64,000 nucleotides of DNA from Parcubacteria group bacterium Gr01-1014_20 (GTDB lineage Bacteria > Patescibacteriota > Minisyncoccia > UBA6257 > 2-01-FULL-56-20), in the NCBI GenBank assembly GCA_007376265.1, contig VMFW01000005.1:198-64197 (forward strand). Reading direction: 5' to 3'. The notes beneath the pieces are model-generated. The model did no database searches, was not told the DNA's origin, and saw nothing but the letters and a program-made list of their open reading frames with translations. Position 1 is the first letter of the stretch; the number at the start of each line of letters is the position of its first letter. Position numbers and translations under genes: made by a program. Positions 15,942-52,885 of this stretch are shown piece by piece.

Positions 15942-15977
15942 TCAGCCGCACATTAAAAACTAAATAAGGAGGTTTGA

Positions 15978-19441: not shown

Positions 19442-19468
19442 GAGGGGATGATTTTTGGGTGGTAGGTT

Positions 19469-20197: not shown

Positions 20198-20236
20198 CTT
20201 TTGATGCTACGACGAAAGGGGCTCTCTTGTAAAGAG

Positions 20237-22068: not shown

Positions 22069-22071
22069 AAT

Positions 22072-23382: not shown

Positions 23383-23394
23383 TGAGTCGTATAC

Positions 23395-38155: not shown

Positions 38156-38857
38156 TTACGTGTATTTATTGGTTTTAAATTCTTCTGGACGGCCATCGAG
38201 GACTAATTCTGTCTCGTTGCTCCCAATGTAAAATTCGTAAATTTTTTGCGCGACTTCATCTGGATCCATGCCATATGTAAACTCCTCTCTGGTTTTGACT
38301 CTGGTTAAGTAAACCCCTTTGACCCGAATGTTTTTTTTTCTTGCTTCGAGGGCTAGGGAGTTGGTGAAACCTCGAAGACCCCATTTGGTTGTGCCGTAAA
38401 GAATGTTAGTTTCTTTGAACTCGAGGCCGACGATAGAATTCATATTTATGATGGTCCCTCCACCCATCCTCGTAAAACTTTTGTAGATTCTTCTTGAAAG
38501 TTTTATCAAGGAAACCAAGTTGGTTGTGAGAATCTTGTCGATTTTTGTGTCGTCTATATCCTCGAATGGAACTCCGTAAGCGCTTAAGATGTCAGCGGCG
38601 TTATTGACCAGGACGCTTGATCCACCCCCCCTCAACGCCTCTAGCTCTAAGAGATTGATGGTTTTTGACAGCATGAGGTCGCCGAGAACCTGGGAGCAGG
38701 CTACTCCCAGCGCCTTAATCCTCTCTGAAACTTTTTCTAATTTGTCTTTGTTCCTCCCATGAATGACTAGGTCGTAACCGTTCGTCGCAAAAGCAATGGC
38801 CAAAGACTCACCCAAGCCCGTACTGGATCCGGTAATAATTGCTTTTTTTCGAATCAT
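38156..38857 (-). CDS. short-chain dehydrogenase/reductase
   Basis: KAIITGSSTGLGESLA...NNAA...YGTTK. Confidence 0.7.
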   Translation of the reverse strand: MIRKKAIITGSSTGLGESLAIAFATNGYDLVIHGRNKDKLEKVSERIKALGVACSQVLGDLMLSKTINLLELEALRGGGSSVLVNNAADILSAYGVPFEDIDDTKIDKILTTNLVSLIKLSRRIYKSFTRMGGGTIINMNSIVGLEFKETNILYGTTKWGLRGFTNSLALEARKKNIRVKGVYLTRVKTREEFTYGMDPDEVAQKIYEFYIGSNETELVLDGRPEEFKTNKYT

Positions 38858-38859
38858 GA

Positions 38860-39828
38860 TTATTTGGCTTTGGGTTTAACAAAGAACTCGTTATGGTTGT
38901 AAATTCTTTCTATCTCCTTTAATTCGGTTGAGGTTAGTGGGGTTAAACTGCTTGCCTTAAGATTCTCTACTACATCACTCTGACTAATCATACCCGGGAT
39001 TACGGCTGATACAACTTTATATGCGAGGCAAAACTGTAGCGCCAGTTGAGCCAAGTTTCTGTCCTTACCTTTATTTATGTGAGCAAAAAGTTCTGGGGCT
39101 CTTGCCCACGTCGCTATTTGCTCAACCGGCCAGCTGGAGCGATGATCTCGAGGGTCGAATTTAGCACCGGAATACTTGCCCGTCAAAAACCCAAAACAAA
39201 GGGGTGTTCTAGCCACAACTCCAATGTTTTTCTCGAGGGCGATTTCCATAAAACCGTTTTCAACTATCCTTTGATCAATCATGTTGAAATTAACCTGGAC
39301 GGATTCGAATCCAAGTTCATTCACGGCAATTAGGGAGTCGGCCGGCTTTCTTACTGAAACTCCGAATGCCAAGATTTTACCCTCTTTTTTCAAAGACTTC
39401 AGGGTTTCAATGATATTTTTTTCTTCCCTAACCACTTCAATAACCGGACTGTGAAGCTGATACAAGTCAATGTATTCGGTTTTTAGCCTCCTCAGGCTTT
39501 CCTCTAGTGAGTGGCGGATGTTTTGACTTGAGAAGTTTTGGGGTTCGTTATGGTCCGAAAATCCAACTTTTGTCGCGATTACTATATCTTTTCTTACGTC
39601 CTTAAACGTTTCTCCAATAAGTTCTTCACTGTGTCCGTATCCATAAACCCCCGCCGTATCGTAAAGAGTGATACCGTTGTCGTAGGCCAGCCGGAGTGCT
39701 TTTTTAGATTCGGCGTCATCGACTGGGCCATAGGAGGTTGCTCCCTTTGTTACTCCCCCAATCCCCCACGCCCCGAAACCAATCTCTGAAACCCTAAGAC
39801 CAGAACTTCCAAGATTCCTATATTTCAT
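38860..39828 (-). CDS. aldo/keto reductase
   Basis: MKYRNLGSSGLRVSEIGFGAWGIGG AKR N-terminus. 322 aa. Confidence 0.75.
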   Translation of the reverse strand: MKYRNLGSSGLRVSEIGFGAWGIGGVTKGATSYGPVDDAESKKALRLAYDNGITLYDTAGVYGYGHSEELIGETFKDVRKDIVIATKVGFSDHNEPQNFSSQNIRHSLEESLRRLKTEYIDLYQLHSPVIEVVREEKNIIETLKSLKKEGKILAFGVSVRKPADSLIAVNELGFESVQVNFNMIDQRIVENGFMEIALEKNIGVVARTPLCFGFLTGKYSGAKFDPRDHRSSWPVEQIATWARAPELFAHINKGKDRNLAQLALQFCLAYKVVSAVIPGMISQSDVVENLKASSLTPLTSTELKEIERIYNHNEFFVKPKAK

Positions 39829-39831: not shown

Positions 39832-40791
39832 TTAAACTCCCACCGGAGACCAAACAACAACTGAATAACCGTCGACAAATAAGCTTCCGATGTAGGTTCG
39901 TTGCGCTTGGTGAATTTTAATTCGGCCTCCTAGTTCTAGCCTTCTAAGAAAGTGCAGAAAACCATTCAGATAGTTTCTTTTTTTAAAATACTCAATGGAT
40001 AAGTAGTCCAAAAAGTTTGTTTCATCTAATAGTTCCGTGATGGGTTCAATATGGATGCAAATTTTTGGTTTATTCGAAAGTAGGTAGGTGATAAACTTTT
40101 CAAAGTTTTGTCCGGCTTGTTCAAGCGCGGCCACAGTATAAACAGCACTACCCGGCTCAAGACGAAAACTGTTGTCTGGGTTAAAAAAATCAAAGAGGTG
40201 TCCGGTTATGTTTTTTTCTAAGCCGGCCTCCTTTAGTAAGGATATGATTTTTTCTGCGGTGCTAGTCCAATCACATCCGTGGAGGCTGGCGGTTTTGTTT
40301 ATTTGTCTAGTCCTGAGCAGGTTGTGGCTGGTGCCGCAACCAAACTCGTAGATAGAAGGAACGTCTTTTAGGTATTTCTCAAACAACCAGTACTCTATTA
40401 CCGCAAGCATGTTGTATTCGAAATCTACAGAAAGCGGCTTAATAAGATCCTGCTTCCACCTAACAGCACCGTACTTACCGAAGTAGCGTGGGATCAGCGC
40501 GCTAACGACTTTGCTTTTCTCAAGAGTCGACAGGTTTTCGTGCCACCCCATTTCCCACTGACTTAACCTATGCTCCCCCGCGGGAATCACATTGTAATCG
40601 TTGATCGTTTTAACAATCTTTAACAACCAGGAGTCTCTTTCGGCCCGGCTAAAACTGCTATAAAGAAAGGGGTGGTTTTCTATCCACCCCGAGAGTTGGG
40701 GGGATATTTTTTCTCCTAGGACATTCTCGAAGTCGACTGGTAGTAGGGCAATTTTCTCTTTTTGGGTGAGGTTCGCTGAGTTATCGCTCAT
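39832..40791 (-). CDS. class I SAM-dependent methyltransferase (candidate sugar O-methyltransferase)
   Basis: 319 aa. IYEFGCGTSHN motif-I-like glycine loop. Confidence 0.45.
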   Translation of the reverse strand: MSDNSANLTQKEKIALLPVDFENVLGEKISPQLSGWIENHPFLYSSFSRAERDSWLLKIVKTINDYNVIPAGEHRLSQWEMGWHENLSTLEKSKVVSALIPRYFGKYGAVRWKQDLIKPLSVDFEYNMLAVIEYWLFEKYLKDVPSIYEFGCGTSHNLLRTRQINKTASLHGCDWTSTAEKIISLLKEAGLEKNITGHLFDFFNPDNSFRLEPGSAVYTVAALEQAGQNFEKFITYLLSNKPKICIHIEPITELLDETNFLDYLSIEYFKKRNYLNGFLHFLRRLELGGRIKIHQAQRTYIGSLFVDGYSVVVWSPVGV

Positions 40792-40801: not shown

Positions 40802-41863
40802 TTAACTGTTAGTTGATTTTTCTCTGGCCAGATTCCACTCGATTGTTCTTTTTAAACCCTCTCGTAAAGCCACCTGGGGCTTGAAGCCGAATTCATTTTC
40901 CATCTTTTTCATGCTCAAGCAAACTCTAGAGGGGGCACCAATAACACTTGGGTCTTTTCCTGGTCCCGATACTACCATAGTTCCCATAAGCTCTCCGATT
41001 AGTAGGGCTAGCTCTTTGATGGTTACCTCCTCTTCTTGTGAGCCTACATTATATATCGCGTCTTTGGAAAATAGCAAAATGTTTAAGAGTTGCCTTAGGA
41101 CATCTGACATATAACAGAAACTCCTTAGATCCCTTCCGTCGTCGACCATGTTGATGACTTTTTCTAGATGGGCTTTTTTCATAAACTGACTAATGACTCG
41201 TTCGTCATCAAAGCTTAAGCCTGGTCCATAAGACAGTGCAGGACGGGCGATTCGAATATTAAGACCGTATTTTTGCATATAGCTTAAGCATAAGACTTCA
41301 GAGAGTCGTTTTGACTCAATGTAGCAAGCACGGTTGTTGGTAATTGAACTTGAGCCTTCATACGTTTCTGGGGTAGGAAAGCTTTCGGGAGTCGGTGAGC
41401 CGTAAATTTCGCTACTGCTTAGGTAAAGAATTCTGGCGTGAGGGCTGGTTTTGACAGCGCTTTCTAAGATGCTCTTTATGCCGATGTAGTTTACATCAAT
41501 GGTTCGAACGGGATTTTCCAAGAATGCGGCTGGGGCCGCATAGCCAGCGGCGTGGACAATAAAGTCGTATTTTTCATTGTAAACGTTGGGTTCTGATAGA
41601 TCTTTATTGGTAATCAGGAAATTGTTTGCATTCAGAAGAGCATATATCCTAGAGTTTTCTGTGATCTCGCTTTTAGTGACTAGGTGAACCTTGGTTTTGT
41701 AGTTAAGTTCTTCATTTAGGTAACTAAAAAAATAGGCGAGATAAGACCCAATAAGACCATTAGCTCCAGTGAGTAGGACGCTTTTGTTTCTTAGACCCAG
41801 AGAGTTAGTGCAGTCGGATATTTTTTTGACGTCCTCTAGTACTATTTTATCGATTAATTTCAT
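40802..41863 (-). CDS. NAD-dependent epimerase/dehydratase
   Basis: VLLTGANGLIGSYLAYF Rossmann motif. 353 aa. Confidence 0.65.
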   Translation of the reverse strand: MKLIDKIVLEDVKKISDCTNSLGLRNKSVLLTGANGLIGSYLAYFFSYLNEELNYKTKVHLVTKSEITENSRIYALLNANNFLITNKDLSEPNVYNEKYDFIVHAAGYAAPAAFLENPVRTIDVNYIGIKSILESAVKTSPHARILYLSSSEIYGSPTPESFPTPETYEGSSSITNNRACYIESKRLSEVLCLSYMQKYGLNIRIARPALSYGPGLSFDDERVISQFMKKAHLEKVINMVDDGRDLRSFCYMSDVLRQLLNILLFSKDAIYNVGSQEEEVTIKELALLIGELMGTMVVSGPGKDPSVIGAPSRVCLSMKKMENEFGFKPQVALREGLKRTIEWNLAREKSTNS

Positions 41864-42752
41864 GAATGGCTTTCACTATACCTTCTTTGGTCAAACCATT
41901 AGCTTGACAGTGCTCCTCGTAAGAGCCGTAGTTGAGCAAAAATTTGTCCTCAATCCCCAATCTAGTATGTCGGAATGGGACCTTACTGCAAATTCTGGAG
42001 ATTTCATCTCCGATACCGCCAATAACGGAGTGTTCCTCTACGGTGACAAGTTTCTTGGTTTTTCCGAGACTTTTTATTAAAGTTCCGACAGAGTCCTCAG
42101 AGATCGGTTTGATGGTAGTTAAGTAGATTAGGTCACATTCGATTCCTTTTTCTTTCAGTTCGCTGACGGCGTTATTGGCATTCTCAAGTTGTGGCCCAGC
42201 AACAACTAAGGTAACGTCTTTGCCATTTATAATAGTTTCGACTTCGCCAAACTTGGGGTTGGTTTTTAAGCCGTGAGACTTGGCGGGGAGACGAAAGTAG
42301 GTAGGATGTCCGTTCGAGTAGGTTTCCCTAAATAGGGTGTCTAACTCGTGGGGAGCGGCGGGATATACGATCTGCATATTAGGTAAGGATCGCAATATGG
42401 CAATATCGTCGTATGAATGATGGGTGCATCCCAGTGATGCGTAGTCAAAGGCACTCCCGACGCTAACTATGTTTACCCCCACATCTTGATAACAAAGGTC
42501 GTCTTTTACCTGCTCGAAACATCTTTCGGTTACAAAGGGGGTGATGCTATGAACAACCGGAAAGAGGCCGCCCAGAGCTAGTCCGGAAGCCATACTCATC
42601 ATTGACTGCTCCGCCACGCCCATATTATAAAAACGGGTTCTGTGACTTTCCTCAAAATCTTTGAGTAGGAAGTGGCTAATATCGCCGATTAGAACAACCA
42701 GTTTGTCGTCTTTTCCTAATTCAAGTAGGGTTTTGGCAAATTGTTTTCTCAT
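41847..42752 (-). CDS. transketolase, C-terminal subunit (split two-gene transketolase)
   Basis: 301 aa. Pyrimidine-binding and C-terminal domains. Overlaps the N-terminal subunit gene by 4 nt. Confidence 0.75.
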   Translation of the reverse strand: MRKQFAKTLLELGKDDKLVVLIGDISHFLLKDFEESHRTRFYNMGVAEQSMMSMASGLALGGLFPVVHSITPFVTERCFEQVKDDLCYQDVGVNIVSVGSAFDYASLGCTHHSYDDIAILRSLPNMQIVYPAAPHELDTLFRETYSNGHPTYFRLPAKSHGLKTNPKFGEVETIINGKDVTLVVAGPQLENANNAVSELKEKGIECDLIYLTTIKPISEDSVGTLIKSLGKTKKLVTVEEHSVIGGIGDEISRICSKVPFRHTRLGIEDKFLLNYGSYEEHCQANGLTKEGIVKAIHEINR

Positions 42753-43510
42753 TTGAGTACTTCTTTTTTAAACATCTCCAGCTCCAGCTCTGTTGGTGCT
42801 TTGTGGTGCCAAGTAAAGAAGTTACTTTCCATCTCTCTAATACCCTTACCTTTCGTGGTGTTTGCTATGACACAAAGTGGTTTTGGGTGGTTGATATTGT
42901 TTTTATTGAAGAGTACTTCGGCTATTTCGCTGAGATCGTGGCCGTTTATTTCTCGGACTTCCCACCCGAAAGAAAGAAATTTGTCTTTCAGGTTTATTGA
43001 TGTCATTGCCCGGGTTTGAGATTTATTATTGTCAATAATAGCTACTAGGTTTAGGAGTTTGAGTTGTTCGGCATACATGGCTGTTTCCCAGATCGTTCCC
43101 TCGTTGGTTTCGCCGTCGCCGATGATGCAAAAGACTCTTCCCGGTTCGTTTTTTATTTTTTTTGAGAGAGCATAGCCGGCGGCGATTGGGAAGCCGTGAC
43201 CCAAAGACCCTGATGAGTTTAGTATGCCAATCTCGGGATTCTTGTGGGGGTGACCTCCCAAAACAGAGTCGTACTTACAAAAGGTGTCTAGCTCACTTTT
43301 AGTAATGTAGCCAAAATGAGCCAAAACGGCGTATAGAGCGGCGCTGGCGTGACCCTTGCTTAAAAAGAACTGATCGTTTTTTGTTTTATTTAGATGTATT
43401 GAGTAAAGGAGCTCCACAACCGAGAGGGCGCTTGGTATGTGTCCTTCTCCGGCCCGAGAAACCATCTCCAAAATGTTGAGCCTAATACCTTTTAGGTCTT
43501 CTTGGGGCAT
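42749..43510 (-). CDS. transketolase, N-terminal (TPP-binding) subunit
   Basis: 253 aa. LSKGHASAALYAVL...GSLGHGFPIAAGYAL...GDGETNEG TPP-binding motifs. Confidence 0.75.
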   Translation of the reverse strand: MPQEDLKGIRLNILEMVSRAGEGHIPSALSVVELLYSIHLNKTKNDQFFLSKGHASAALYAVLAHFGYITKSELDTFCKYDSVLGGHPHKNPEIGILNSSGSLGHGFPIAAGYALSKKIKNEPGRVFCIIGDGETNEGTIWETAMYAEQLKLLNLVAIIDNNKSQTRAMTSINLKDKFLSFGWEVREINGHDLSEIAEVLFNKNNINHPKPLCVIANTTKGKGIREMESNFFTWHHKAPTELELEMFKKEVLK

Positions 43511-43602: not shown

Positions 43603-44355
43603 TTAGGCCTGCTTGCTGAAAAATTTTTGGGCTTTTTCATATCGTTCCGGAGTGCCGATGTCAACCAGCTCTGCTTCGGAGATAAAAGCAAGGCACTTCT
43701 GTCCTAGGATTTTGGGGAAGAGGTCGTACTCAATAGAAAATGCTACTTGGGGGGGTAGAAGACTCAGTATTGTCTTGTTCATGAAATACATACCCGCATT
43801 TACGAAGCCGCCATCGCCTCCAACAACTTTCTCATTAAAACTCAGAATTTGCCCTAGTGGGTTCGTTCTTACAACTCCGTAATCTAATGACTTCCGAGGA
43901 GCGGTAACCGCAATCGAGAGCGTCCCTTCTTTTTCAGTATGAAAAAGATAGAACTTCGGCAAATCCACATCACAGAAGGAGTCACCGTTCATGACTAAGA
44001 AATTTTCACTCCCAACCATTTCGCCAGCCTTCTTCAGCGCACCACCAGTACCAAGGGGGGTTTCTTCTTCTGAGAAAACGAAGTTGTTTGCGCGAGGGTG
44101 ATTTTTGAAATGTTTTACAATTTTCTCTTTCATGTAACCAGTGCTCAAAATAATCCTATTAAAGCCGTGAGCGAAGAGACGATCGACCAGGATATCTATG
44201 AAAACCCGACCTCCTACTTCCGCAAGAACTTTGGGACGATCAGACACAACAGTCCTTAATCTTTTCCCTTCGCCCCCACATAAAATAACCGCATCTATGT
44301 TTTTGAAGGGGTTGGGGATGCTTTCTGTTTTTTTACTCGATATCTGATGGACCAT
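43603..44355 (-). CDS. sugar-1-phosphate nucleotidyltransferase, HddC-like (D-glycero-alpha-D-manno-heptose-1-P guanylyltransferase family)
   Basis: AVILCGGEGKRLRTVVSDRPKVLAEV G-loop. 250 aa. Overlaps the GHMP kinase gene by 23 nt. Confidence 0.65.
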   Translation of the reverse strand: MVHQISSKKTESIPNPFKNIDAVILCGGEGKRLRTVVSDRPKVLAEVGGRVFIDILVDRLFAHGFNRIILSTGYMKEKIVKHFKNHPRANNFVFSEEETPLGTGGALKKAGEMVGSENFLVMNGDSFCDVDLPKFYLFHTEKEGTLSIAVTAPRKSLDYGVVRTNPLGQILSFNEKVVGGDGGFVNAGMYFMNKTILSLLPPQVAFSIEYDLFPKILGQKCLAFISEAELVDIGTPERYEKAQKFFSKQA

Positions 44356-45328
44356 AGTAAATTACTTGACTGCCAATATTTTCGAATTTAACGGGGACGC
44401 AGAGCAAATTCTTTAGCTTTTCCTTAACGGCTGATTGAAACTCTGGCCTTACATAGAAGAGCATAAAACCACCCCCCCCTGCTCCGAGCAACTTCCCTCC
44501 CAGAGCTCCGGCTTGGCGGCCGGCTTCGTAAATTTCATCGATGTGTTTATTGGTAACCTGGGAAGTGAGCTGTCTTTTTATTTTCCAATTTTCGTGCAAG
44601 AGGCGGCCAAAATCGTCAAAGTTGTTTTCGCTTTCGATAATCGAGACGGCTTGATTAACCATGTCTTTCATTGTTTGTAATTCTTTGCTTTTTTCTGGTG
44701 TTCGGCGAATTTGTTCTGCTGCAATGTCGGACGCGTTTCTGGTGAGGCCCGTAAAAAACAAGAGCAGGCAGCTTTCAAGGGACTTGAGCTTTTCTAACTT
44801 CATGGTAACTGGAAAAACTGAAATGCGCTGTGGGCCGCCAAATTCGATCTTGTTGAAACCACCAAAGGCGGTTGCAACCTGATCTTGAGATCCAACATTT
44901 TCCTTGAGGATATCCTGCTCGACGTTGATTGCGTCAAAGGCTAGTTGCCTTTTTGTGACAAGACGACCCTGTAGGGCGTGTAGGGCGTGGATAAGACCGA
45001 CAGTGAATGCTGAACTAGAACCAAGCCCGGAACGAGCGGGCAAATCAGCATCGTGGTGAATTTCTACCCCCTTTTTGACATTTAAAAATTTTAGAGTTTC
45101 CCTTGCTGTTGGGTGTTGAATCTCATCTAGGTGTTTCACTGCTTCTATCCTTGACCAGACTAATCGGTGTTTGTGATCGAAAAACGGCGGGAGATACCTG
45201 CAGGTTATATAGCAGTAATTATTTATAGACGCAGAAAGAACGGCGCCGCCATTATCTTCGTACCAAGCTGGGTAATCGGTGCCCCCTCCAAAGAAAGAGA
45301 TCCTAAATGGTGTACGCGTGATGATCAT
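44333..45328 (-). CDS. GHMP-family kinase, HddA-like (heptose 7-phosphate kinase family)
   Basis: MIITRTPFRISFFGGGTDYP...SGLGSSSA. Paralog of 23395..24381. Confidence 0.65.
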   Translation of the reverse strand: MIITRTPFRISFFGGGTDYPAWYEDNGGAVLSASINNYCYITCRYLPPFFDHKHRLVWSRIEAVKHLDEIQHPTARETLKFLNVKKGVEIHHDADLPARSGLGSSSAFTVGLIHALHALQGRLVTKRQLAFDAINVEQDILKENVGSQDQVATAFGGFNKIEFGGPQRISVFPVTMKLEKLKSLESCLLLFFTGLTRNASDIAAEQIRRTPEKSKELQTMKDMVNQAVSIIESENNFDDFGRLLHENWKIKRQLTSQVTNKHIDEIYEAGRQAGALGGKLLGAGGGGFMLFYVRPEFQSAVKEKLKNLLCVPVKFENIGSQVIYYGPSDIE

Positions 45329-46272
45329 TAAACATTAGAAAACTGATGTCGCCGGACGACTTTATATCCTCGAATAAGCTCGGCGATGCCCTCGTCCAGT
45401 GAGATTTGGGTTTTGAAACCCGTTTTTTCAATCTTGGAATTGTTCACGATGTAATTACGTTTGTCGGGGTCTTTGCCGATTTTAGACTCAATAAAAACAA
45501 AACTTGGTATTTGTTTTTTTATCTCTTCGCAAAGTTCTAATTTGCTCAGATTGGCGTCAGAAAGACCGACGTTGTAGGTTTCGTTTTTCATGGTTTCGAA
45601 ATTTTCCATGGTGTGCATAAAGGCGTTGGCCACATCTCGAACGTGTATATAGTTGCGTTTAAAGTGTGGCTCGAACAAAACCACAGCTCCATCGTTAACT
45701 GCCCGATAAACAAAGTCATTCACTAGAAGATCAAGTCGCATTCGGGGACTAATTCCAAAAACGGTAGCCAGCCTGAGAGTGATTGTGTTTCCAGCCTCAA
45801 GCAGCTCTTTTTCGGCCTGCACTTTGAGTTTGCCATACAAAGAGACGGGATCGAGGGCGCTAGTTTCATCGCAGAAGGCAACTCCTTCGGCCATTCGGCC
45901 GTAACCGCTGTTGGTGTTTGGGAAAATTATTTTCTGTTCTTTTTCTCGAAGGCGCGCAATGGCTTGAATTGCTTCTAAGTTGGTTGTGCGAGCTCCGATA
46001 GGATCTTTATCGCAGCTCGGGGCGCCAACAACGCAGGCAAGGGGGATGATAAAATCCTTGTCTTTGAGGTTTTGTTTTATTAGCTCTTCGTCGCGCGCAT
46101 CCCCACGCACGATAGTGAGGGTTTTAAAGTTACAGACATCAAGGAGGGGGGTTTGATTGTAAATAAAACTATCGATGACGGTAACTTCATGACCTCTACG
46201 CAAAAGCTCTGGAACCAGTATGGATCCAATGTAGCCAGCTCCACCTGTGATAAGAATTTTCCTGGGCGACAT
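45328..46272 (-). CDS. NAD-dependent epimerase/dehydratase
   Basis: KILITGGAGYIGSILV. 314 aa. Confidence 0.65.
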   Translation of the reverse strand: MSPRKILITGGAGYIGSILVPELLRRGHEVTVIDSFIYNQTPLLDVCNFKTLTIVRGDARDEELIKQNLKDKDFIIPLACVVGAPSCDKDPIGARTTNLEAIQAIARLREKEQKIIFPNTNSGYGRMAEGVAFCDETSALDPVSLYGKLKVQAEKELLEAGNTITLRLATVFGISPRMRLDLLVNDFVYRAVNDGAVVLFEPHFKRNYIHVRDVANAFMHTMENFETMKNETYNVGLSDANLSKLELCEEIKKQIPSFVFIESKIGKDPDKRNYIVNNSKIEKTGFKTQISLDEGIAELIRGYKVVRRHQFSNV

Positions 46273-46277: not shown

Positions 46278-46796
46278 TTACAAATACTTACCCTGCTCAT
46301 CCCGTTGCGAAACGATCGGATTCTTTACTGGCCACCAGATATTCAGCTTGGGATCGTTCCACTTGTAGGTAAACTGCTTCTCTGGGTTGTAGTAGGTTGA
46401 TTGTTTATAGTGAAAAATCGAAAGGTCGCTTAAAACCAAGTGAGCATTACCGTGTTTTGGGGGCACCAGGACCTGAAGGTGGTTTTCTGATGATAGGAGG
46501 AATGATTGCCACTGCCCAAAGGTTGGAGACGTTCCATCGCAGTTTACGACGACAAAGTAAAAACGCCCGTAAAGGCAGGATATTAGTTTCCAAGTTTCGG
46601 TATCACCGTGAATACCCCTAAGGACATGCTTACTCGAGACAGAAATGTCATCTTGAACAAAGTCGACATTAATACCGGTCTCAGCGTACAGGTTTTTACT
46701 GTAGGTTTGGACGTAATGACCCCGAAAGTCTTCGAAGACTTCCGGCTTAATTGTTATGACTCCCTCGAGTTTAGTTTTAGAAATCTCCATTCTCAT
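46278..46796 (-). CDS. RmlC-like cupin sugar-nucleotide 3,5-epimerase
   Basis: 172 aa. KLEGVITIKPEVFEDFRGHY...RGIHGD pattern of dTDP-4-dehydrorhamnose 3,5-epimerase-like enzymes. Confidence 0.65.
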   Translation of the reverse strand: MRMEISKTKLEGVITIKPEVFEDFRGHYVQTYSKNLYAETGINVDFVQDDISVSSKHVLRGIHGDTETWKLISCLYGRFYFVVVNCDGTSPTFGQWQSFLLSSENHLQVLVPPKHGNAHLVLSDLSIFHYKQSTYYNPEKQFTYKWNDPKLNIWWPVKNPIVSQRDEQGKYL

Positions 46797-46959
46797 GTAA
46801 TGAGTCCTTAATACTACGGGTTATTTATAGACCAATTACCTGTCTCTTTCAAGCCTTTTCGGCGGACTTGGTCAAGATGTGGAATTTTTCAATCTAGGAG
46901 AGACAGTCTTCCACCACAAGGAGGTGGCTGTTTAATAACGGCACGTAGCGTTGGGGTTT

Positions 46960-47511
46960 CTACTTTTCGTTGTAGTAATCTCCGTATTCTACGAGTAGAG
47001 TGGACTTTCCGTCCGGACGATTGATGGCTTTTTCATATTCCGGGAAGATTTGCTCTGGAGTGTCTAACCTCACAACTTCTATATTTTTTACGAGCAAACG
47101 CATGGCTTCGGTGAAGTCACCGCTATGTTGAACCCCGGGAAAAAGTGGTCTCTCTGATCCAATGGCAGTTTTAATGATAACTTTTGGCCAAACTTTTCCA
47201 TTAGTAATAACCGGGATTTTATCGAGGTGGTTAACCAACTGATTTAATGCCAGAAGGAGGAAATTGAATCGTGGGTAAATGCTGATCGGTATATAACCCG
47301 CTAATGCTAAACCGATCGACATGCCCATTTGGGTTTCTTCAAAAACCGGGAGTTCAATTCTTTTCTCGAGAGGTACGTTTTCAATGGTCTTAAAGATACT
47401 GTTTCCTGGAAAAGCTACGCTCTGCCCAATAAATAAGGTGCTGGGATTTTCTGCCAAATACAACATGGCTCTTGTAAGTTCTGATTTGTATCTTAGTTGT
47501 TCCATGCTCAA
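46960..47511 (-). CDS. short TPP-enzyme E1 beta-like / transketolase pyrimidine-binding-domain protein
   Basis: 183 aa. Resembles only the N-terminal (Pyr) domain of 2-oxoacid dehydrogenase E1 beta/transketolase (FIGQSVAFPG...ETQMGMSIGLALAGYIP). Confidence 0.5.
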   Translation of the reverse strand: MSMEQLRYKSELTRAMLYLAENPSTLFIGQSVAFPGNSIFKTIENVPLEKRIELPVFEETQMGMSIGLALAGYIPISIYPRFNFLLLALNQLVNHLDKIPVITNGKVWPKVIIKTAIGSERPLFPGVQHSGDFTEAMRLLVKNIEVVRLDTPEQIFPEYEKAINRPDGKSTLLVEYGDYYNEK

Positions 47512-47523
47512 TAAATTAAAGGC

Positions 47524-48111
47524 TTATCCGAAAGTAACCCACTTGCCACTGCCATAATGGGGATATTTATTCTTTTTATGTTCATACTTTGTAACTTTAT
47601 TTGCGGATTTCTCTTCTCCCCATGCTTTTTTAGTTGGAGTATTAGTTGAAATCCCGTTGTCCTCAATTACGAAAGAGATGGGGAGATTGTTTCGCTCTGC
47701 ATAGTTTACCGCTTCATGGAAAATGCCACCCTCGGCGGCCATATCTCCAACAAACACCCAGACGTGCTCAGTTAATTTTTTTTGCTTTATGGCGAAAGCC
47801 ACTCCGAGCGCAATCGGTGTGTTCCCACCGACAATCCCAGAGGAGTAGAAACGATGTTCGGGGTTACAAACGGTAATACTATTGCCTCGGATGATTTCTT
47901 CACGCAACCAGATTGGACTAACACCGTGCAAGAGAGCATGATAATGACTGCGATGGGTAGAAAAAACCCAATCGTTAGGTTTAATATCCCTGAATATTTC
48001 TATAAGTTGGTCCTCGTTACCATCGGAAAGATGGATGGGGGCTTTAATTTTACCGGTCTCAAACAGAGATGCGATATCTTCTTCGAACTTTATTAGCTCT
48101 TCTTTAGTCAT
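47524..48111 (-). CDS. short TPP-binding E1 alpha-like protein
   Basis: Track ORF 47524..48234 trimmed to internal start MTKEEL (48111). The longer form would overlap the upstream fcl-like gene by 130 nt and begins with low-complexity sequence. HRSHYHAL...GGNTPIALGVAFA...GDMAAEGG TPP-binding pattern. Confidence 0.5.
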   Translation of the reverse strand: MTKEELIKFEEDIASLFETGKIKAPIHLSDGNEDQLIEIFRDIKPNDWVFSTHRSHYHALLHGVSPIWLREEIIRGNSITVCNPEHRFYSSGIVGGNTPIALGVAFAIKQKKLTEHVWVFVGDMAAEGGIFHEAVNYAERNNLPISFVIEDNGISTNTPTKKAWGEEKSANKVTKYEHKKNKYPHYGSGKWVTFG

Positions 48112-49048
48112 AGGCAATAGTTTGCTCGAACCAGTCAATTGTATTCTTGAGTCCAGTTTCAAACGAGGTGCAGGATTTAAACCCGAATTCTCTTTCGGCC
48201 CGGGTGGCGTCGAGCATCCTTCGGGGCTGGCCATCGGGCTTAGACTTGTCCCACCTTACTTCCCCTTGGTAATTCATTATTCTACAAATTAACGCGACAA
48301 GATCTCGAATTGACGTTTCGGTGCCCGACCCCAAGTTAACTGGATCGGGTTTATCGTATTTTTCGCTTGCCAAAATAATCCCCTCGGCTGATTCCTCGAC
48401 GTACAAAAATTCTCGCGTAGGAGTCCCCGTCCCCCAAACTTCAATATAGTCCTTGCCTTGTTTTTTAGCAACGGCCACTTTCCTGATAAGGGCGGGGATG
48501 ACGTGAGAGCTCCTCTCTTCGAAATTGTCGCCTGGGCCATACATATTGACTGGGAAAAGCGTTATGGCATTGAAGTCATACTGTTGCCTATAGGCCTGGG
48601 CTTGAACAAGGAGCATTTTCTTAGCTAGTCCATATGGGGCGTTAGTTTCCTCCGGGTACCCATTCCATAGGTTTTCCTCCTTGAAAGGAACGGGGGTAAA
48701 TTTCGGGTAGGCACAGATAGTGGCAACTCCAACGAATTTCTTAACTCCAGCTTGTCTTGCGGCTTCCATTATTTGTGTCCCCATGATTAAGTTGTCGTAG
48801 AAAAGCTCGCCTGGCTTTTCCCGGTTGAGACCGATGCCTCCAGCCCTGGCAGCGAGATGGATCACAACGTCAATCCCGTTAGTAGCTGCTTTGCAATTTT
48901 CCATCATCCGTAAGTCGCAATCGGAAAAGCGAGGTGCTGTTATGTTTTCAAGCGGAACTTTTCTTTTTTCAACAAGGTTTTTTATTAACCTGGCACCAAG
49001 AAAGCCATGGCCGCCGGTGACTAATATTCTTGCTTTTTTCAGGTCCAT
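48104..49048 (-). CDS. GDP-L-fucose synthase-like 3,5-epimerase/4-reductase (second Fcl/DmhB-family copy)
   Basis: ARILVTGGHGFLGARL...YGLAKK. 314 aa. About 50 percent identical by eye to 37202..38149. Confidence 0.7.
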   Translation of the reverse strand: MDLKKARILVTGGHGFLGARLIKNLVEKRKVPLENITAPRFSDCDLRMMENCKAATNGIDVVIHLAARAGGIGLNREKPGELFYDNLIMGTQIMEAARQAGVKKFVGVATICAYPKFTPVPFKEENLWNGYPEETNAPYGLAKKMLLVQAQAYRQQYDFNAITLFPVNMYGPGDNFEERSSHVIPALIRKVAVAKKQGKDYIEVWGTGTPTREFLYVEESAEGIILASEKYDKPDPVNLGSGTETSIRDLVALICRIMNYQGEVRWDKSKPDGQPRRMLDATRAEREFGFKSCTSFETGLKNTIDWFEQTIAYD

Positions 49049-49122: not shown

Positions 49123-49584
49123 TCACCTAAAACCGCTTATCTTTAGAAAGGTTCTTAGGTAGGGGTCAGAGTTCGCTTTGATCTTACGAAACCATTTGAA
49201 ATCAGAGCTCTGGTCATCTAAGGTTATTTTTACTTTTCGCTTAACCTCGACTTCAAAAACTATCGCAACGACATGCGAAGCAAAACCTTTGAAGTAGCTC
49301 GCTTTGGGATTATAGAAGTGATCGTGAACACCGAGGAATTTCCAATTTTTTCCCGAAACTCCGACTTCTTCTTTTAGTTTTCGCTTTGCAGTTTCAACTA
49401 GGCGTTCCCCTTTTAAAACTCGGCCGCCTGGAAAATACCAAGCGTTGGCTTCGGGATTATTTTTCCTCTTGACAAGCAAGAATTCCTGGTTGTTTTTCAC
49501 AACTAAGTCAACAGTGACGATCGGTAAAACTTGGTGAATCTTTCGATAAAGAGCCGGAGGGATTAATTTCGTAACAGGCTTCAT
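49123..49584 (-). CDS. NUDIX hydrolase (GDP-mannose mannosyl hydrolase Gmm/NudD-like)
   Basis: GGRVLKGERLVETAKRKLKEEVGV NUDIX box. Sits in the classical position between gmd and fcl. Confidence 0.65.
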   Translation of the reverse strand: MKPVTKLIPPALYRKIHQVLPIVTVDLVVKNNQEFLLVKRKNNPEANAWYFPGGRVLKGERLVETAKRKLKEEVGVSGKNWKFLGVHDHFYNPKASYFKGFASHVVAIVFEVEVKRKVKITLDDQSSDFKWFRKIKANSDPYLRTFLKISGFR

Positions 49585-49599: not shown

Positions 49600-50592
49600 T
49601 TAGGAAGTTCGGGCTTCTTTCATATCGGCGTCAACCATAACCTTAACGAGGTCGGCAAATTTTGTTTTGGCTTCCCACCCGAGTTTATCTTTGGCTTTCC
49701 TAGAATCAGCCGCAAGGTTGTCAACTTCCGTCGGCCGATAGTAACGCGAATCGAAATCGACGTAATCTTTCCAGTTCAATCCCGCGTGAGCAAAAGCGGC
49801 CTCTAGAAACTCCTTGACCGAATGAGACTCACCAGTGCCGATCACGAAATCTTCCGGTTTTTCTTGCTGGAGCATAAGCCACATGGCTTCAACGTACTCG
49901 GGGGCGTAACCCCAATCGCGTTTGGCTTCTAAGTTTCCTAGATATAACTTTTTATCTAATCCGGCTTTAATTCTAGCAATGCCACGAGTTATTTTGCGGG
50001 TGACAAACGTCTCTCCTCGACGGGGACTTTCGTGATTAAAAAGGATCCCATTTACCGCAAACAGGTTGTAGGCTTCGCGGTAGTTGACTACTGTGTTGTA
50101 GGCAAAAACTTTGGCAATGGCGTAGGGGCTCCGAGGGTAGAACGGAGTGGTTTCGCTTTGGGGTGGCGGAGTAGCTCCAAACATTTCGGAACTCGATGCC
50201 TGATAGAACCTTACCTTCTTGCTGACGTGCTCTTGATAATCTTTGATCGCTTCGAGCATTCTTAGCGTCCCTAAAGCCGTGATGTTGGCGGTATACTCGG
50301 GGATATCAAAAGAAACCCTGACGTGGGATTGGGCTCCGAGGTTATACACCTCGTCTGGTTGAATTTTGTAAAGAAGCTTCCGGATCGTGTTAGCGTCGGC
50401 GAGATCGCCGTGGTGCAAAATTAGCCGTTTGGAGACTTCGTGGGGATCTTGATAGATGTGGTTGATTCGACCCGTGTTGAAGGTGGAGGCACGTCGAATG
50501 ACGCCATGGACTTCATACCCCTTTGAAAGAAGTAGCTCAGCTAGATAGGAACCGTCCTGGCCAGTTATTCCCGTAATAAGGGCTTTAAGCAT
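49600..50592 (-). CDS. gmd: GDP-mannose 4,6-dehydratase family (Gmd/DmhA)
   Basis: [34 protein letters not shown]...YAIAKVFA. 330 aa. Confidence 0.85.
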
Positions 50593-50658: not shown

Positions 50659-51294
50659 TCACCTTGCTTTCGTTTTGGTTTTGTCGGCTTGACTCAAAAA
50701 CTCTTGCAGGAGAGTTTTCGTTCTGTCATCAGCCGGCCATTGACTCAAGATTTTCTCTGCGACTTTTACTGTTTCAGGAACATTCCCTTCTAACCGAAAA
50801 ACATCAAAGGCGCCGTAAAGAGACTGGGGTCGGCTGGGCCCAGATTCAAGCGCTTTCAGAAAATATTTTTTGGCCGAGTTGAAGTAGGCGGGGTCTTGGG
50901 TTTTGAGGTAGGCAAGCTCGTTGATTGAACCCAGAACGTAAAGATTCTGGCTGAAGCTCATCCCGCGATTACGGCGAATAATCGGATCGTAGTATTTCTC
51001 GGCAAAGGTTATTAGTTTTTTGATTATTTGAGGGTCGTTATTTTGTTGAGTGATACTCAAGATAGCGCTGCCAAGCTGGCGGACTAGCTCTTCTTGCCCG
51101 ATGGGGGATGGGGCATCTAAAATCGTCGAAAAGTTTTTTTCAAAATCCGCTATTGAGGCTGTCGCGCCAAGTGACCGCATGGTCAATATAAAACCGCTCG
51201 ATTTTTTGAACGGCAAATAGGAGCCAAGATAGGCTATTAGCGCCATAGCAATAACCAAGAAAACCGAAATAACTCTTTTAAGAATGGGGTTCAT
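50659..51294 (-). CDS. hypothetical membrane-anchored protein (alpha-helical, TPR-like)
   Basis: 211 aa. N-terminal TM anchor. Overlaps the downstream ligase-like gene by 17 nt. Confidence 0.4.
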   Translation of the reverse strand: MNPILKRVISVFLVIAMALIAYLGSYLPFKKSSGFILTMRSLGATASIADFEKNFSTILDAPSPIGQEELVRQLGSAILSITQQNNDPQIIKKLITFAEKYYDPIIRRNRGMSFSQNLYVLGSINELAYLKTQDPAYFNSAKKYFLKALESGPSRPQSLYGAFDVFRLEGNVPETVKVAEKILSQWPADDRTKTLLQEFLSQADKTKTKAR

Positions 51295-52885
51295 GTTTCG
51301 AATTAAACTGGTGAGAGGCGAAAGCTAGAAAGAGAAACAGGTTGATGTAGACTGGTAAAACATCGAACAGGGCAAGCGCCTGGACTAAATAAGCAATTGG
51401 AAGAGTTATGAATAAACCCCTTAAAACAACATTGCTATAGGGCTTTCCATCGGAATGGGTGACTTCTCCGGAGTCAAACCGTTTGTGCCAATGTTTAAAA
51501 AGTTGCCAGTAGAAAACAATAAAGACTACCATGTAGCTTAAAAGACCAAGGATCCCGGTCTCGGTAAGATAGTCAAAAAAAACACTGTGAGCTCGGTCAA
51601 ACCACGTTTCTGAAACCTTCCCTGGCTTGTAGTGCCGTGAGTCAAAGTGGCGATCGAAAACTGTGCTGAAGTTTTCTTGGCCCCACCCTAAAATCGGCCG
51701 CTCCTTGAAGCCTTTCCAGGCTGACCCCCAGGTCCAAAGACGGGTTTGAACTGAATCGGCTTTTAAGCCTTGGTCAAAAAGCTCAAGCACTCTGCCGCCG
51801 GGCAGACTACTCACAAGCGGCGTTTGACGATAATAATATAGGCCAGCTATCGCTAAAACAAAGACGCTCAGCGCAGCCAGAGTCCATCTTTTCCAGTTTC
51901 TTGGGAGAAAAAAGACTAAATAGAAAAGGAGAACTAGGGTGCTGACGAACAATCCCAGGATAGCGCCACGGGTTTGGCTTAAAGTCAGGAAAAAGGTAAA
52001 ACACCAAATAAGAAAACCATAAAAGAGGGAGAGTGGTTCTCGTTTGCGAAATCCATAAACTAGGGAACCACAAAAGATTAGGAGGCCTAAAATCAACAGA
52101 GTTACAGGTACCGCTGAAGAAGTGGCGGAGAGTGTGGTTGTTATAAAAAAATAGGAAGAAATCATTGAAAAAGCTAAGAAAACCCCAGTAGCAGAAACGA
52201 GCGCTTTTGCTTTTGGGTTGCGATTGAACCATAGATAGGTGGCGTAGAAAAGGGAGAACATCAGATAAGGAGCGACGTAGGATGGATTACCTAGGGTTCC
52301 TTGAAATCTCGCAATAGTTAACCTTCCCCAAACGCTGGGTGGGACTTCCGCTCCATATGGACCAATGAGGCGACTAATCCAACACGTCTGGTCTAAATCG
52401 AAAGACGAACAACCTAATTGCGCAAAAACACCGTACAAAATAAGGAGAGCGGCAGCGGCGAGAGAAAGTCGGAGCGCCCACTTCCAGTCTTTCCACTCTC
52501 TGAAGAGAACTGTAAGCAAGACAAAAAAAATGTAATAGTGCAACAGTTGAAAACCACCTTCGCCCCTTTCAAAATTCGACCAGAAAGCGCCGAGGGGATC
52601 AAAAGCAAAGAGCGAGGCGAGTAATCCGATGAAGGCAAAAATTGAAACGGCCAAAAAAATAGGTTGCCTGGAAACTTTTTTCAACCTTTCCCAGATTTGG
52701 TTTGATTTATCAAAAAACCCCCAAAAAAGGATGAGGGAGGCAAGGGCGAATTCGACGGCTAACCTGAAAAAGTAATATTTGCCTCCGATAAAAGGAAAGA
52801 AGGTTGAGGGCAACACAATGACAACGCTAAACAGGGCGGCGTACAGAAAAATTTTAGAAATTTTTACCAAGATGTTTGGATTCAT
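51278..52885 (-). CDS. O-antigen ligase/polymerase-like polytopic membrane protein
   Basis: 535 aa with 12+ TM helices and a large periplasmic loop. Ends the glycan locus. Confidence 0.5.
   Translation of the reverse strand: MNPNILVKISKIFLYAALFSVVIVLPSTFFPFIGGKYYFFRLAVEFALASLILFWGFFDKSNQIWERLKKVSRQPIFLAVSIFAFIGLLASLFAFDPLGAFWSNFERGEGGFQLLHYYIFFVLLTVLFREWKDWKWALRLSLAAAALLILYGVFAQLGCSSFDLDQTCWISRLIGPYGAEVPPSVWGRLTIARFQGTLGNPSYVAPYLMFSLFYATYLWFNRNPKAKALVSATGVFLAFSMISSYFFITTTLSATSSAVPVTLLILGLLIFCGSLVYGFRKREPLSLFYGFLIWCFTFFLTLSQTRGAILGLFVSTLVLLFYLVFFLPRNWKRWTLAALSVFVLAIAGLYYYRQTPLVSSLPGGRVLELFDQGLKADSVQTRLWTWGSAWKGFKERPILGWGQENFSTVFDRHFDSRHYKPGKVSETWFDRAHSVFFDYLTETGILGLLSYMVVFIVFYWQLFKHWHKRFDSGEVTHSDGKPYSNVVLRGLFITLPIAYLVQALALFDVLPVYINLFLFLAFASHQFNSKHEPHS

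Follow-up and report, generated by a model that had tools for sequence, protein, structure and literature searches.

A widespread family of miniature E1-type thiamine diphosphate protein pairs, found in a Parcubacteria surface-glycan operon, as candidate carboligases of GDP-4-keto sugars

The stretch of DNA analyzed here (the window; 64,000 nt, positions 198 to 64,197 of contig VMFW01000005.1 of Parcubacteria group bacterium Gr01-1014_20) carries two small neighboring genes on its minus strand, whose products resemble the two subunits, alpha and beta, of the E1 component of pyruvate dehydrogenase (PDH), an enzyme dependent on thiamine diphosphate (ThDP). An earlier reading, made from the sequence alone, had proposed two such open reading frames (ORFs) of approx. 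195 and 183 aa between an RmlC-like and an Fcl-like gene. Both ORFs and both flanking genes are present (Table 1). The size of the alpha-like protein (mini-alpha) stands at 195 aa, but the beta-like protein (mini-beta) most likely has 181 aa. Mini-alpha begins with an ATG (48111) that shares bases with the stop of the Fcl gene upstream (ATGACTAA) and agrees with the N-terminal consensus of the family; therefore, a longer alpha ORF of 236 aa (to 48234), to which homologs give no support, is not considered the gene. For beta, the ORF 46960-47511 encodes 183 aa if initiated at TTG, and an ATG at 47505, two codons inside and 18 nt past the alpha stop, is most likely the true start. An NCBI protein (P0121; Parcubacteria group bacterium) has exactly this start and matches the 181-aa product with 100% identity. 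Mini-beta is separated from the RmlC-like gene by a non-coding gap of 163 nt (46797-46959), the widest in this part of the operon, which contains a hairpin (CCACC-N7-GGTGG, 46911-46927) without a T-run on the coding strand. A scan for promoters and terminators around the mini-pair gave nothing above chance.

Pfam coverage, hhalign and superposition of structural models agree with the earlier claim that only the ThDP-binding and pyrimidine-binding modules have been kept. Mini-alpha corresponds to the diphosphate-binding (PP) domain and matches Pfam E1_dh with 9.7e-21, a partial match covering profile positions 6-177 of 300 only. Mini-beta corresponds to the pyrimidine-binding (Pyr) domain; it matches Transket_pyr with 5.3e-06 (26.6 bits, narrowly missing the 27-bit cut-off), ends after this domain, and has no Pfam match to Transketolase_C (PF02780). 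Using hhalign, mini-alpha was aligned to an ordinary E1-alpha of 327 aa up to query residue 158 (template residue 180), after the Mg2+-binding motif, and mini-beta to residues 18-137 of a 325-aa E1-beta. AlphaFold monomers modeled from the family alignments had a pLDDT of 87.1 for mini-alpha and of 91.4 (pTM 0.90) for mini-beta. The best PDB matches of the mini-alpha model are the PP domains of human and bacterial E1-alpha (TMq approx. 0.7, TMt approx. 0.4), and the mini-beta model superposes on the Pyr domain of E1-beta chains (TMq 0.82 for 1um9_B, TMt 0.46–0.48). No solved structure of a mini form was found when both subunits were compared with the PDB.

Regarding family membership, the best NCBIfam models are PDH E1-alpha and E1-beta, with scores far under the equivalog cut-offs (mini-alpha 100.5 vs. 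393.85 bits; mini-beta 35.5 vs. 321 bits). The nearest full-length relatives of mini-alpha are pyruvate-specific PDH E1-alpha proteins (TIGR03182, 8.3e-29; human E1p). The pair does not have the features of a split transketolase, as mini-alpha reaches 15.5 bits with Transketolase_N, under the cut-off of 22 bits, and mini-beta is without Transketolase_C. Of the domains of YerE-type enzymes, only a weak match to TPP_enzyme_C (7e-06) was detected, and none to TPP_enzyme_N or TPP_enzyme_M; this weak match reflects the common PP fold. The match to NCBIfam sulfopy_beta (sulfopyruvate decarboxylase beta) is insignificant, with 12 bits vs. a cut-off of 221.5.

In ordinary E1 enzymes, the loops and the histidine by which lipoyl-E2 is reductively acylated are part of the C-terminal half of the alpha subunit, and E2 docks onto the C-terminal domain of the beta subunit. 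The pair lacks this half of alpha as well as the entire C-terminal domain of beta. Since the parts for E2 coupling are absent, though the ThDP machinery is kept, the pair cannot serve as E1 in a dehydrogenase complex. Neither the window operon nor any mini-pair neighborhood looked at contains a gene for E2 or E3. Of the properties of a canonical E1, the pair shows the ThDP-Mg2+ motif and the activating Glu of beta, but neither a full-length E1-alpha, an E1-beta with Transketolase_C, a score at equivalog level nor an association with E2/E3.

The ThDP motif of mini-alpha is G122-D123-M124-x26-D151-N152, a variant of GDG-x(24-27)-NN in which the Asp and Asn ligands are kept and Met takes the third position instead of Gly. 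Among homologs down to 51–60% identity, which span bacteria, archaea and phages, H27, E33, R54, H56, G122, M124, E150, D151 and N152 of mini-alpha are invariant, as are E56, Q126 and H127 of mini-beta. E56 aligns with the ThDP-activating Glu of E1-beta and Q126-H127 with its QHS histidine. A loss of such ThDP-binding residues had been named beforehand as evidence against a functional pair, but hardly any family member deviates in the G-D-M-x26-D-N motif or in the activating Glu. The last 37 residues of mini-alpha carry the family-specific motif Y-P-H-x-G-x-G-K-W-V-x-F, in which P184 and H185 are invariant. An interpretation of YPHxGxGKW as the kept catalytic-His loop (YRxxGHS) of E1-alpha was rejected, as hhalign aligns nothing past residue 158.

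The small size is a property of the whole family. The best 120 homologs of each subunit (down to 56–60% identity) measure 174–237 aa for alpha and 168–201 aa for beta. An exhaustive profile search with the beta alignment gave 161 clusters (50% identity) at E ≤ 1e-30 and 549 at E ≤ 1e-10, and pattern scans confirmed at least 574 loci among the viral contigs of IMG/VR and at least 583 among metagenome contigs. Carriers among metagenome-assembled genomes belong to Patescibacteria, Paceibacteria, Saccharibacteria, Rhabdochlamydiaceae, Chloroflexi, Actinomycetota, Woesearchaeota, Nanoarchaeota and other archaea. In databases, the homologs are named pyruvate dehydrogenase E1 alpha and beta. Plasmid matches, including one of the cultured Vescimonas, were rejected as family members, being ordinary full-length E1 with <37% identity that stand next to E2 and E3; the Vescimonas E1 (L027) adjoins E2, E3 and lipoate ligase.

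Alpha and beta are fused in some cases (P0251, 408 aa; P0381, 356 aa), among them two cyanophages of T4-like type that are in culture, P-TIM68 (381 aa) and S-SM2 (402 aa). Since natural fusions exist and the two genes are adjacent in cellular loci, we conclude that the subunits act together. In other fusions, beta is joined to a radical S-adenosylmethionine (radical-SAM)/SPASM domain (P0387, 558 aa) or to a Methyltransf_24 domain (P0246). Degraded fragments, the other finding that would have spoken against the sequence-only reading, were not observed: lengths are conserved over the family without degradation, and the sequences indicate a large, length-conserved family with intact motifs rather than gene fragments. 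Its claim that the pair is no standard annotated family member is correct with respect to curated cut-offs, but the family as such is very common. A literature search found no description of the miniature family, of its cyanophage genes, or of a heptose-linked ThDP enzyme. Judging from the sequences collected, the pair is a widespread, uncharacterized minimal ThDP enzyme of the E1 lineage, strikingly abundant in phages.

The neighbors of the pair point to sugar nucleotides. In Campylobacter jejuni, a GDP-heptose pathway uses the oxidase Cj1427 (MlghA), the epimerase Cj1430 (MlghB, acting on C3/C5) and the reductase Cj1428 (MlghC, acting on C4) (PMC10680097, PMC7949155). Co-occurrence and mutual exclusivity were assessed for the best 160 of >1,100 matching contigs. 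Of the 74 viral loci of at least 12 kb, 91% contain beta within 10 kb, 93% an RmlC-like and 82% a Cj1427-like gene (the latter with a median of 49% identity), but 1% a GHMP kinase; the values for the 33 metagenome loci of this size are 85, 76, 76, and 18%, respectively. The Cj1427-like partners of related loci show a median identity of approx. 50%. The co-occurrence with gmd- and rmlC-like genes that had been suggested as a check was found for RmlC-like genes (76–93%), but the commonest generator of the 4-keto group is Cj1427-like, not Gmd.

In loci that extend 5 kb or more to each side of alpha, an RmlC-like epimerase is located within 7 kb in 58–83%, and a 4-keto generator, i.e., a Cj1427-like oxidase or a Gmd-like dehydratase, in 58/63 viral and 21/26 metagenome loci (81–92%), which upholds the earlier link of the pair to keto-sugar nucleotides. 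Both generators together occur in just one locus per set (one-sided Fisher p = 8e-7 for viral and 0.018 for metagenome loci, values that are overstated since the loci are phylogenetically related and not independent). As the two types are nearly mutually exclusive, the conserved need is a nucleotide-activated 4-keto sugar plus an epimerase, not one particular route. When all ORFs up to 7 kb from alpha were clustered without bias, the same partners came out, together with radical-SAM families and several unannotated families. Minor partners are GHMP kinases (1–18% of loci), PfkB kinases (3–8%), SIS proteins (0–9%) and C-methyltransferases (1–3%). The C-methyltransferase starting at 35897 of the window, from which a branched-chain sugar had been suspected, is a real gene (35897-37162), but at this low frequency it was rejected as a functional partner; the exception is one huge phage of 735 kb, where the order beta, radical-SAM/SPASM gene, alpha is flanked by two C-methyltransferase homologs.

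A compact cassette was seen in Rhabdochlamydiaceae and a related uncultured bacterium. It consists of genes for a Cj1427-like protein (54–56% identity), an HddA-like protein (52–53%), alpha, beta, a homolog of the unannotated window protein unk319, an RmlC-like protein (66–68%) and an NTP-transferase/HddC-like protein, and no other short-chain dehydrogenase/reductase (SDR) of the extended type is present within 10 kb. In gene content it parallels Cj1423-Cj1430 of C. jejuni, where Cj1423 is hddC, Cj1424 gmhA, Cj1425 hddA, and Cj1426 an O-methyltransferase, followed by Cj1427, Cj1428, and Cj1430 (PMC3546167). HddA-like homologs (52–62% identity) adjoin the pair in Rhabdochlamydiaceae and Chloroflexi loci. 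At a Woesearchaeote locus, a Gmd-like dehydratase directly precedes alpha and beta, which are followed by SDRs and a DegT aminotransferase. The cyanophage fusions stand after a zinc-dependent alcohol dehydrogenase (Zn-ADH) and before a PfkB kinase, SDRs, cytidylyltransferase-like proteins and an annotated phosphoheptose isomerase, a neighborhood that makes up a phage-encoded sugar-nucleotide pathway.

In the window, all genes of the operon are on the minus strand. The top PDB matches of the RmlC-like protein are the C. jejuni GDP-D-glycero-4-keto-D-lyxo-heptose 3,5-epimerases 7m14, 8db5, 8dco, 7ang and 7an4 (1.5e-36), with dTDP RmlC only slightly behind (2.4e-32). The SDR next to it (45328-46272) matches 6vo6/6vo8, which we take to be Cj1427, the C. 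jejuni GDP-heptose C4-oxidase, over its full length with approx. 55–60% identity by eye; the next SDR structures have E-values of 1e-19 or worse. This SDR and 6vo6 both carry NTNSGYG in place of STDEVYG of the 4,6-dehydratases, indicating an oxidase or epimerase type instead of a dehydratase. Genes flanking the pair therefore have the oxidase and the epimerase of the C. jejuni GDP-heptose pathway as their nearest relatives of solved structure. The Fcl gene on the other side fits together with Gmd, NUDIX and a GT10 fucosyltransferase-like gene (28025-29122) as a GDP-fucose branch, whose GDP-4-keto-6-deoxymannose is an alternative acceptor. The mini-pair thus stands where two routes to a GDP-4-keto sugar meet. 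The sequence-only reading had recognized neither the Cj1427-type SDR beside RmlC, nor a split transketolase in the operon, nor the large conserved mini family.

ThDP-dependent branching of sugars is known from YerE-like single-chain lyases of lipopolysaccharide (LPS) and lipooligosaccharide (LOS) pathways (PMC9306805, PMC12247030) and from full-length E1 alpha/beta enzymes (“alpha-KADH2”) of actinomycete antibiotics (PMC4425429, PMC12247030), and it has been proposed for split transketolases in miharamycin and amipurimycin biosynthesis (PMC12247030). The alpha-KADH2 enzymes, namely AviB1/AviB2 (avilamycin), Pau11/Pau12 (paulomycin), AlmDI/DII (aldgamycin) and KbDH-alpha/beta (kibdelomycin), resemble the mini-pair in being two-subunit E1-type proteins within a keto-sugar pathway and without an E2 partner. 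They are proposed, and in the case of KbDH shown with ketone analogs, to transfer a C2 unit from pyruvate to the carbonyl of a keto-sugar, giving a tertiary alcohol, an addition of C2 units to keto-sugars which YerE performs as well (PMC4425429, PMC12247030). However, Pau11 and Pau12 have 325 and 345 aa (PMC4425429) compared to 195 and 181 aa here, and alpha-KADH2 enzymes are found in actinomycete secondary-metabolite clusters with dTDP-type deoxysugars or glycosylated intermediates, whereas the mini-family is found beside GDP-heptose-type enzymes in surface-glycan loci of candidate phyla radiation (CPR) bacteria, DPANN archaea, chlamydiae and phages. Membership in the AviB1/B2 family as such was rejected since Pau11/Pau12 are full-length, a distinction made by published size. 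By analogy, the mini-pair most plausibly works like the alpha-KADH2 type, though by architecture it is not a member.

YerE-like enzymes (YerE, ErwE, MMAR_2332, MygE, JanthE) share with the pair the proposed ThDP-dependent addition of an acyl anion to the C4 ketone of a nucleotide 4-keto sugar in a surface-glycan pathway (PMC9306805, PMC12247030). They differ in being single chains of approx. 560–580 aa of the decarboxylase (acetolactate-synthase-like) superfamily with TPP_enzyme_N/M/C domains, while the pair belongs to the E1/transketolase lineage. The substrate of YerE is CDP-3,6-dideoxy-4-keto-glucose, and the type stems from Gram-negative and mycobacterial LPS/LOS pathways. YerE-like enzymes and the mini-pair are not simply interchangeable, as one locus (L001, from an Anaplasmataceae-labeled bin) encodes both. 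Subunits of similar size, one PP and one Pyr subunit of approx. 170–190 aa each, occur in the sulfopyruvate decarboxylase ComDE and the imino-acid decarboxylase AzcB/AzcC (PDB 9u8r). AzcB/C is among the structural matches of mini-beta (TMt approx. 0.64), but these enzymes are of the decarboxylase lineage, whereas the best sequence and fold matches of the mini-pair are E1-alpha and E1-beta. The C. jejuni pathway, in turn, ends with reduction of C4 by NADPH and has no ThDP enzyme (PMC10680097). The mini-E1 would either be added to this step or replace it, and in the compact cassette it is found at the place of Cj1428. Since most viral loci also have Fcl-like SDRs, the argument for a replacement of the C4-reductase holds for this bacterial cassette only.

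Based on these results, the pair is a complete ThDP-binding heterodimer without means of E2 coupling, which is genomically tied to enzymes of GDP-4-keto sugars. From this we infer its substrates, the formation of a C–C bond and the position attacked. Our preferred explanation, which we consider about as likely as not, is that of a ThDP carboligase working on its own, by which a GDP-4-keto sugar would receive an acyl unit, probably pyruvate-derived, at C4. It largely agrees with, and sharpens, the two-carbon transfer to a 4-keto sugar that the sequence-only reading had put forward. The broader reading, which we hold a little less firmly and regard as tentative, is that of an unrecognized minimal heterodimeric ThDP class (PP and Pyr domains of the E1 lineage only) whose members would attach carbon to C4 of either GDP-4-keto-heptoses or GDP-4-keto-6-deoxyhexoses. 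This would result in C-branched surface sugars of eight or nine carbons, as yet undescribed, in CPR bacteria, DPANN archaea and chlamydiae, but most often in glycan pathways encoded by phages, cultured marine cyanophages included. Thiamine chemistry would then have been recruited to sugar branching once more and independently, for the first time on GDP-heptoses, and in some lineages coupled to radical-SAM enzymes.

In the proposed pathway, GmhA, the HddA-like kinase and the HddC-like transferase would produce GDP-heptose, which the Cj1427-like SDR would oxidize at C4; alternatively, Gmd would supply GDP-4-keto-6-deoxymannose. The RmlC-like cupin would then epimerize C3 and/or C5. The mini-pair probably assembles as alpha2beta2, with alpha giving the Mg2+-diphosphate site (G-D-M-x26-D-N) and beta the aminopyrimidine site and E56. 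This Glu would activate ThDP, the ylide would attack a 2-oxo acid, most likely pyruvate, and decarboxylation would give the enamine/carbanion. Since hand-over of the acyl group to lipoyl-E2 is lost, the carbanion must go to another carbonyl, and addition of hydroxyethyl-ThDP to the C4 ketone would yield a GDP-4-C-acetyl branched sugar, a tertiary alcohol. Reductases or methyltransferases may tailor this sugar before a glycosyltransferase (GT) installs it in the surface glycan; candidate reductases are the aldo-keto reductase or SDRs in the window, Zn-ADH in cyanophages and the Fcl-like SDRs of most viral loci. Pyruvate is the most likely donor because the nearest full-length relatives are pyruvate-specific and because E1-type sugar-branching enzymes appear to be limited to C2 units (PMC12247030). 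GDP-4-keto-heptose is the likeliest acceptor, as the commonest partner is a Cj1427-like C4-oxidase and not Gmd. An involvement of the mini-E1 in the need of Cj1427 for a 2-oxoacid oxidant was rejected, as Gmd-like loci, which need no such oxidant, keep the pair.

Several observations weigh against a carboligase acting at C4, in addition to the overstated Fisher p-values. The change from GDG to GDM in mini-alpha is unusual, and its 37-residue tail with the invariant P184-H185 is without an E1 counterpart in the hhalign alignment. One or two Fcl-like SDRs are present in most viral loci (53/63), and alpha and beta are 3–6 kb apart in many of them. Radical-SAM enzymes are frequent neighbors or fusion partners of mini-E1 subunits, which suggests chemistry beyond simple acetyl addition. 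The code 6vo6 was found in none of the papers searched for it, and its naming as Cj1427, which follows the deposited name and the pattern of two entries, is provisional. The branched product is a prediction from genes.

The strongest competitor of C4 branching, though in our opinion an improbable one, places the pair before nucleotide activation: a condensation of a 2-oxo acid or ketol donor with a sugar phosphate, similar to that by DXS or transketolase, would give an unusual ketose phosphate (deoxy-heptulose, octulose or the like) for subsequent activation by the SIS isomerase, the kinase and the nucleotidyltransferase, or a simple 2-oxoacid decarboxylase would supply a small aldehyde or acyl unit. 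PP and Pyr folds are indeed common to DXS and transketolase, and in the window, in three further loci (L003, L010, L013) and in P-TIM68 and S-SM2 the pair directly adjoins genes for a kinase (HddA-like or PfkB), for a GmhA-like isomerase and for nucleotidyltransferases. Dedicated split transketolases in the window and in L001 also imply that precursor supply is encoded in such loci. However, kinases, isomerases and transferases are poorly conserved partners, with the frequencies given above for GHMP, PfkB and SIS proteins, compared to approx. 80–90% for a 4-keto generator and epimerase, whose substrates are nucleotide sugars. Moreover, GmhA cannot isomerize a 1-deoxy-ketose derived from pyruvate due to its aldose-ketose isomerase mechanism.

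Somewhat less probable still is a reversal of roles, in which the 4-keto sugar nucleotide is itself the ThDP donor, being attacked at C4 with cleavage or rearrangement of the neighboring C–C bond (ketol transfer, chain or ring change), perhaps finished by radical-SAM partners. To our knowledge, a pyranosyl nucleotide cleaved with the help of ThDP is without precedent. The genomic context of a 4-keto generator and an epimerase would be the same in this case, and the C4 ketone is an alpha-hydroxy-ketone, a type of compound used as substrate by transketolases and by E1 enzymes that cleave acetoin (PMC12247030). Unusual chemistry is also hinted at by the frequent radical-SAM/SPASM neighbors and the fusion of beta with such a domain. 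Against this, the closest relatives are decarboxylating PDH-type E1-alpha proteins and not transketolases (Transketolase_N 15.5 bits), and the characterized ThDP enzymes in sugar-nucleotide clusters are all carboligases with a 2-oxo acid donor (PMC9306805, PMC12247030). A decayed or minimal ordinary pyruvate/acetoin dehydrogenase E1, either non-functional or using an E2 encoded elsewhere, is highly improbable and effectively refuted: database names and best profile models do say PDH E1, but lengths are conserved over hundreds of sequences from different domains of life and from phages, catalytic residues are invariant, the structure predictions give a complete domain with high confidence for each protein, the lipoyl/E2-interacting parts are absent, scores are far under equivalog cut-offs, and the pair is always within sugar loci, with no E2/E3 in any of the neighborhoods looked at.

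A C4-branching activity of the mini-pair would not be categorically new, as ThDP-dependent sugar branching, including that by E1-type enzymes, is already established. Known examples of such tertiary-alcohol branching are almost all from enterobacterial or mycobacterial LPS or from actinomycete antibiotics. If true, the mini-pair would be a fourth, much smaller scaffold (approx. 375 residues in total) and an attractive minimal carboligase for the biocatalysis of chiral tertiary alcohols. It would imply that CPR bacteria, DPANN archaea and environmental chlamydiae, about whose surface chemistry next to nothing is known, have a new class of sugars, and that the pathway is widespread in phages (at least 574 IMG/VR contigs, two cultured cyanophages), which bears on the remodeling of host or virion glycans by phages. 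The predicted substrate class (GDP-4-keto-heptose or GDP-4-keto-6-deoxyhexose) is specific and directly testable, and the predicted substrates have already been made enzymatically with Cj1427 and Cj1430 (PMC10680097).

Table 1. Coordinates of the mini-pair, of the operon around it (in order of transcription), of a second sugar activation set in the window, and of two cyanophage fusions (coordinates within loci L025 and L026).
Feature	Position	Strand	Remarks
Wzy-like	51278-52885	minus	
211-aa protein without assigned function	50659-51294	minus	
Gmd	49600-50592	minus	GDP_Man_Dehyd 2.6e-142
NUDIX	49123-49584	minus	NUDIX 4.2e-22
Fcl	48104-49048	minus	closest to GDP-fucose synthases (7ll6 9e-61), not Cj1428 (7m13 3.8e-27)
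Mini-alpha	47524-48111	minus	195 aa; PP subunit, N-terminal half of E1-alpha only
Mini-beta	46960-47505	minus	181 aa; Pyr subunit, N-terminal domain of E1-beta only
RmlC-like cupin, predicted C3/C5 epimerase of GDP-4-keto sugar	46278-46796	minus	PF00908 5.8e-50
Cj1427-like SDR, predicted GDP-heptose C4-dehydrogenase	45328-46272	minus	6vo6/6vo8 E 2.2e-107
HddA-like GHMP sugar-phosphate kinase	44333-45328	minus	best NCBIfam HddA 8.5e-45, well under equivalog cut-off
HddC-like sugar-1-phosphate guanylyltransferase	43603-44355	minus	best NCBIfam HddC 1.6e-39, under cut-off
Split transketolase N subunit	42749-43510	minus	253 aa; Transketolase_N 1.3e-26
Split transketolase C subunit	41847-42752	minus	301 aa; Transket_pyr + Transketolase_C
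SDR	40802-41863	minus	
unk319, unannotated	39832-40791	minus	319 aa; no Pfam match for window protein
Aldo-keto reductase	38860-39828	minus	Aldo_ket_red 5e-64
Short-chain dehydrogenase	38156-38857	minus	
Fcl-like SDR	37202-38149	minus	
TylCIII-type C-methyltransferase	35897-37162	minus	
GT4	34674-35888	minus	
GmhA-type sedoheptulose-7-phosphate isomerase	34010-34591	minus	NCBIfam phosphoheptose isomerase 2.8e-63
GT4	32799-34013	minus	
Second GHMP kinase	23395-24381	minus	
UDP-Glc/GDP-Man dehydrogenase	22072-23382	minus	
Transaldolase/FSA	19469-20197	minus	
SIS isomerase	18827-19441	minus	
HAD-phosphatase/NTP-transferase fusion	17982-18857	minus	
Fusion in Prochlorococcus phage P-TIM68 (KM359505)	L025 9049-10194		annotated “transketolase central region-containing protein”
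Fusion in Synechococcus phage S-SM2 (SSM2_198)	L026 8983-10191		annotated “transketolase central region-containing protein”

Some further genes of the operon deserve mention. The split transketolase (41847-43510), directly downstream of the HddC-like gene, is a second ThDP enzyme of normal size. As the central metabolism of the organism is reduced, this enzyme may supply sedoheptulose-7-phosphate; alternatively, a keto-sugar may be its substrate, as has been proposed in the case of miharamycin. A split transketolase near a mini-pair is also present in L001, where three ThDP systems occur in series (9083-16601): mini-alpha/beta, a ketopantoate-hydroxymethyltransferase-like gene, a 568-aa acetolactate-synthase/YerE-like ThDP enzyme and the split transketolase, followed by SDRs and a GT2. 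The protein unk319 is a conserved partner of the pair: its homologs (35–36% identity) directly follow beta in four loci (L003, L010, L011, L014), and another follows the split transketolase of L001. Since these homologs have weak matches to Methyltransf_25/31, unk319 is probably a divergent class I SAM methyltransferase, and its position parallels that of the heptose O-methyltransferase Cj1426 of C. jejuni. A role of the aldo-keto reductase in reducing the branch ketone is speculative and suggested by analogy with Pau7, an aldo-keto reductase which reduces the C-4′ acetyl branch in paulomycin (PMC4753412); with 1–3% of loci, it is not a conserved partner.

Radical-SAM genes are linked to the pair in different ways: by the beta-radical-SAM-SPASM fusion P0387, by the radical-SAM/SPASM gene between beta and alpha in the 735-kb phage (L028, 8388-10606), and by radical-SAM genes beside alpha and beside beta in L007 (10001-11828 and 17696-19307). 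One possibility is that such a partner makes the ketone as a BtrN-like radical dehydrogenase. Many viral contigs of 20–330 kb (L029-L108, IMG/VR label; e.g., L031, L037) share a glycan island with the order two GT7+Laminin_G3, radical-SAM-like, unknown, Cj1427-like, RmlC-like, alpha, (radical SAM, HAD, unknown), c3, Fcl-like SDR, c10, Fcl-like SDR, (c7), beta. The ORF family c3 (approx. 458 aa) is found immediately downstream of alpha in 63% of loci, often in two copies, and has no Pfam match. Further ORF families near alpha without a Pfam match are c6 (139 aa), c7 (279 aa) and c13 (327 aa); examples of such Pfam-less families are located at L093 3773-5149, L071 7688-8107, L092 13338-14177 and L039 2445-3428.

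The surface-glycan locus of the window as a whole (approx. 11800-52900, approx. 40 kb) is unusually large for a CPR bacterium. Its products include three proteins with a SIS domain (18827, 30894, 34010), two kinases of the GHMP type, eight or more extended SDRs, a methyltransferase of the FkbM type (30139-30915), glycosyltransferases of the GT2, GT4 and GT10 families, and two Wzy/O-antigen-ligase-like proteins (31406-32773, plus strand; 51278-52885, minus strand). A second set of genes for activation of a higher-carbon sugar is located at 17982-24381 on the minus strand and includes, besides the genes in Table 1, a GFO/IDH/MocA oxidoreductase and an SDR. Its combination of transaldolase, isomerase, kinase, phosphatase and transferase resembles the logic of the lincosamide octose pathway.

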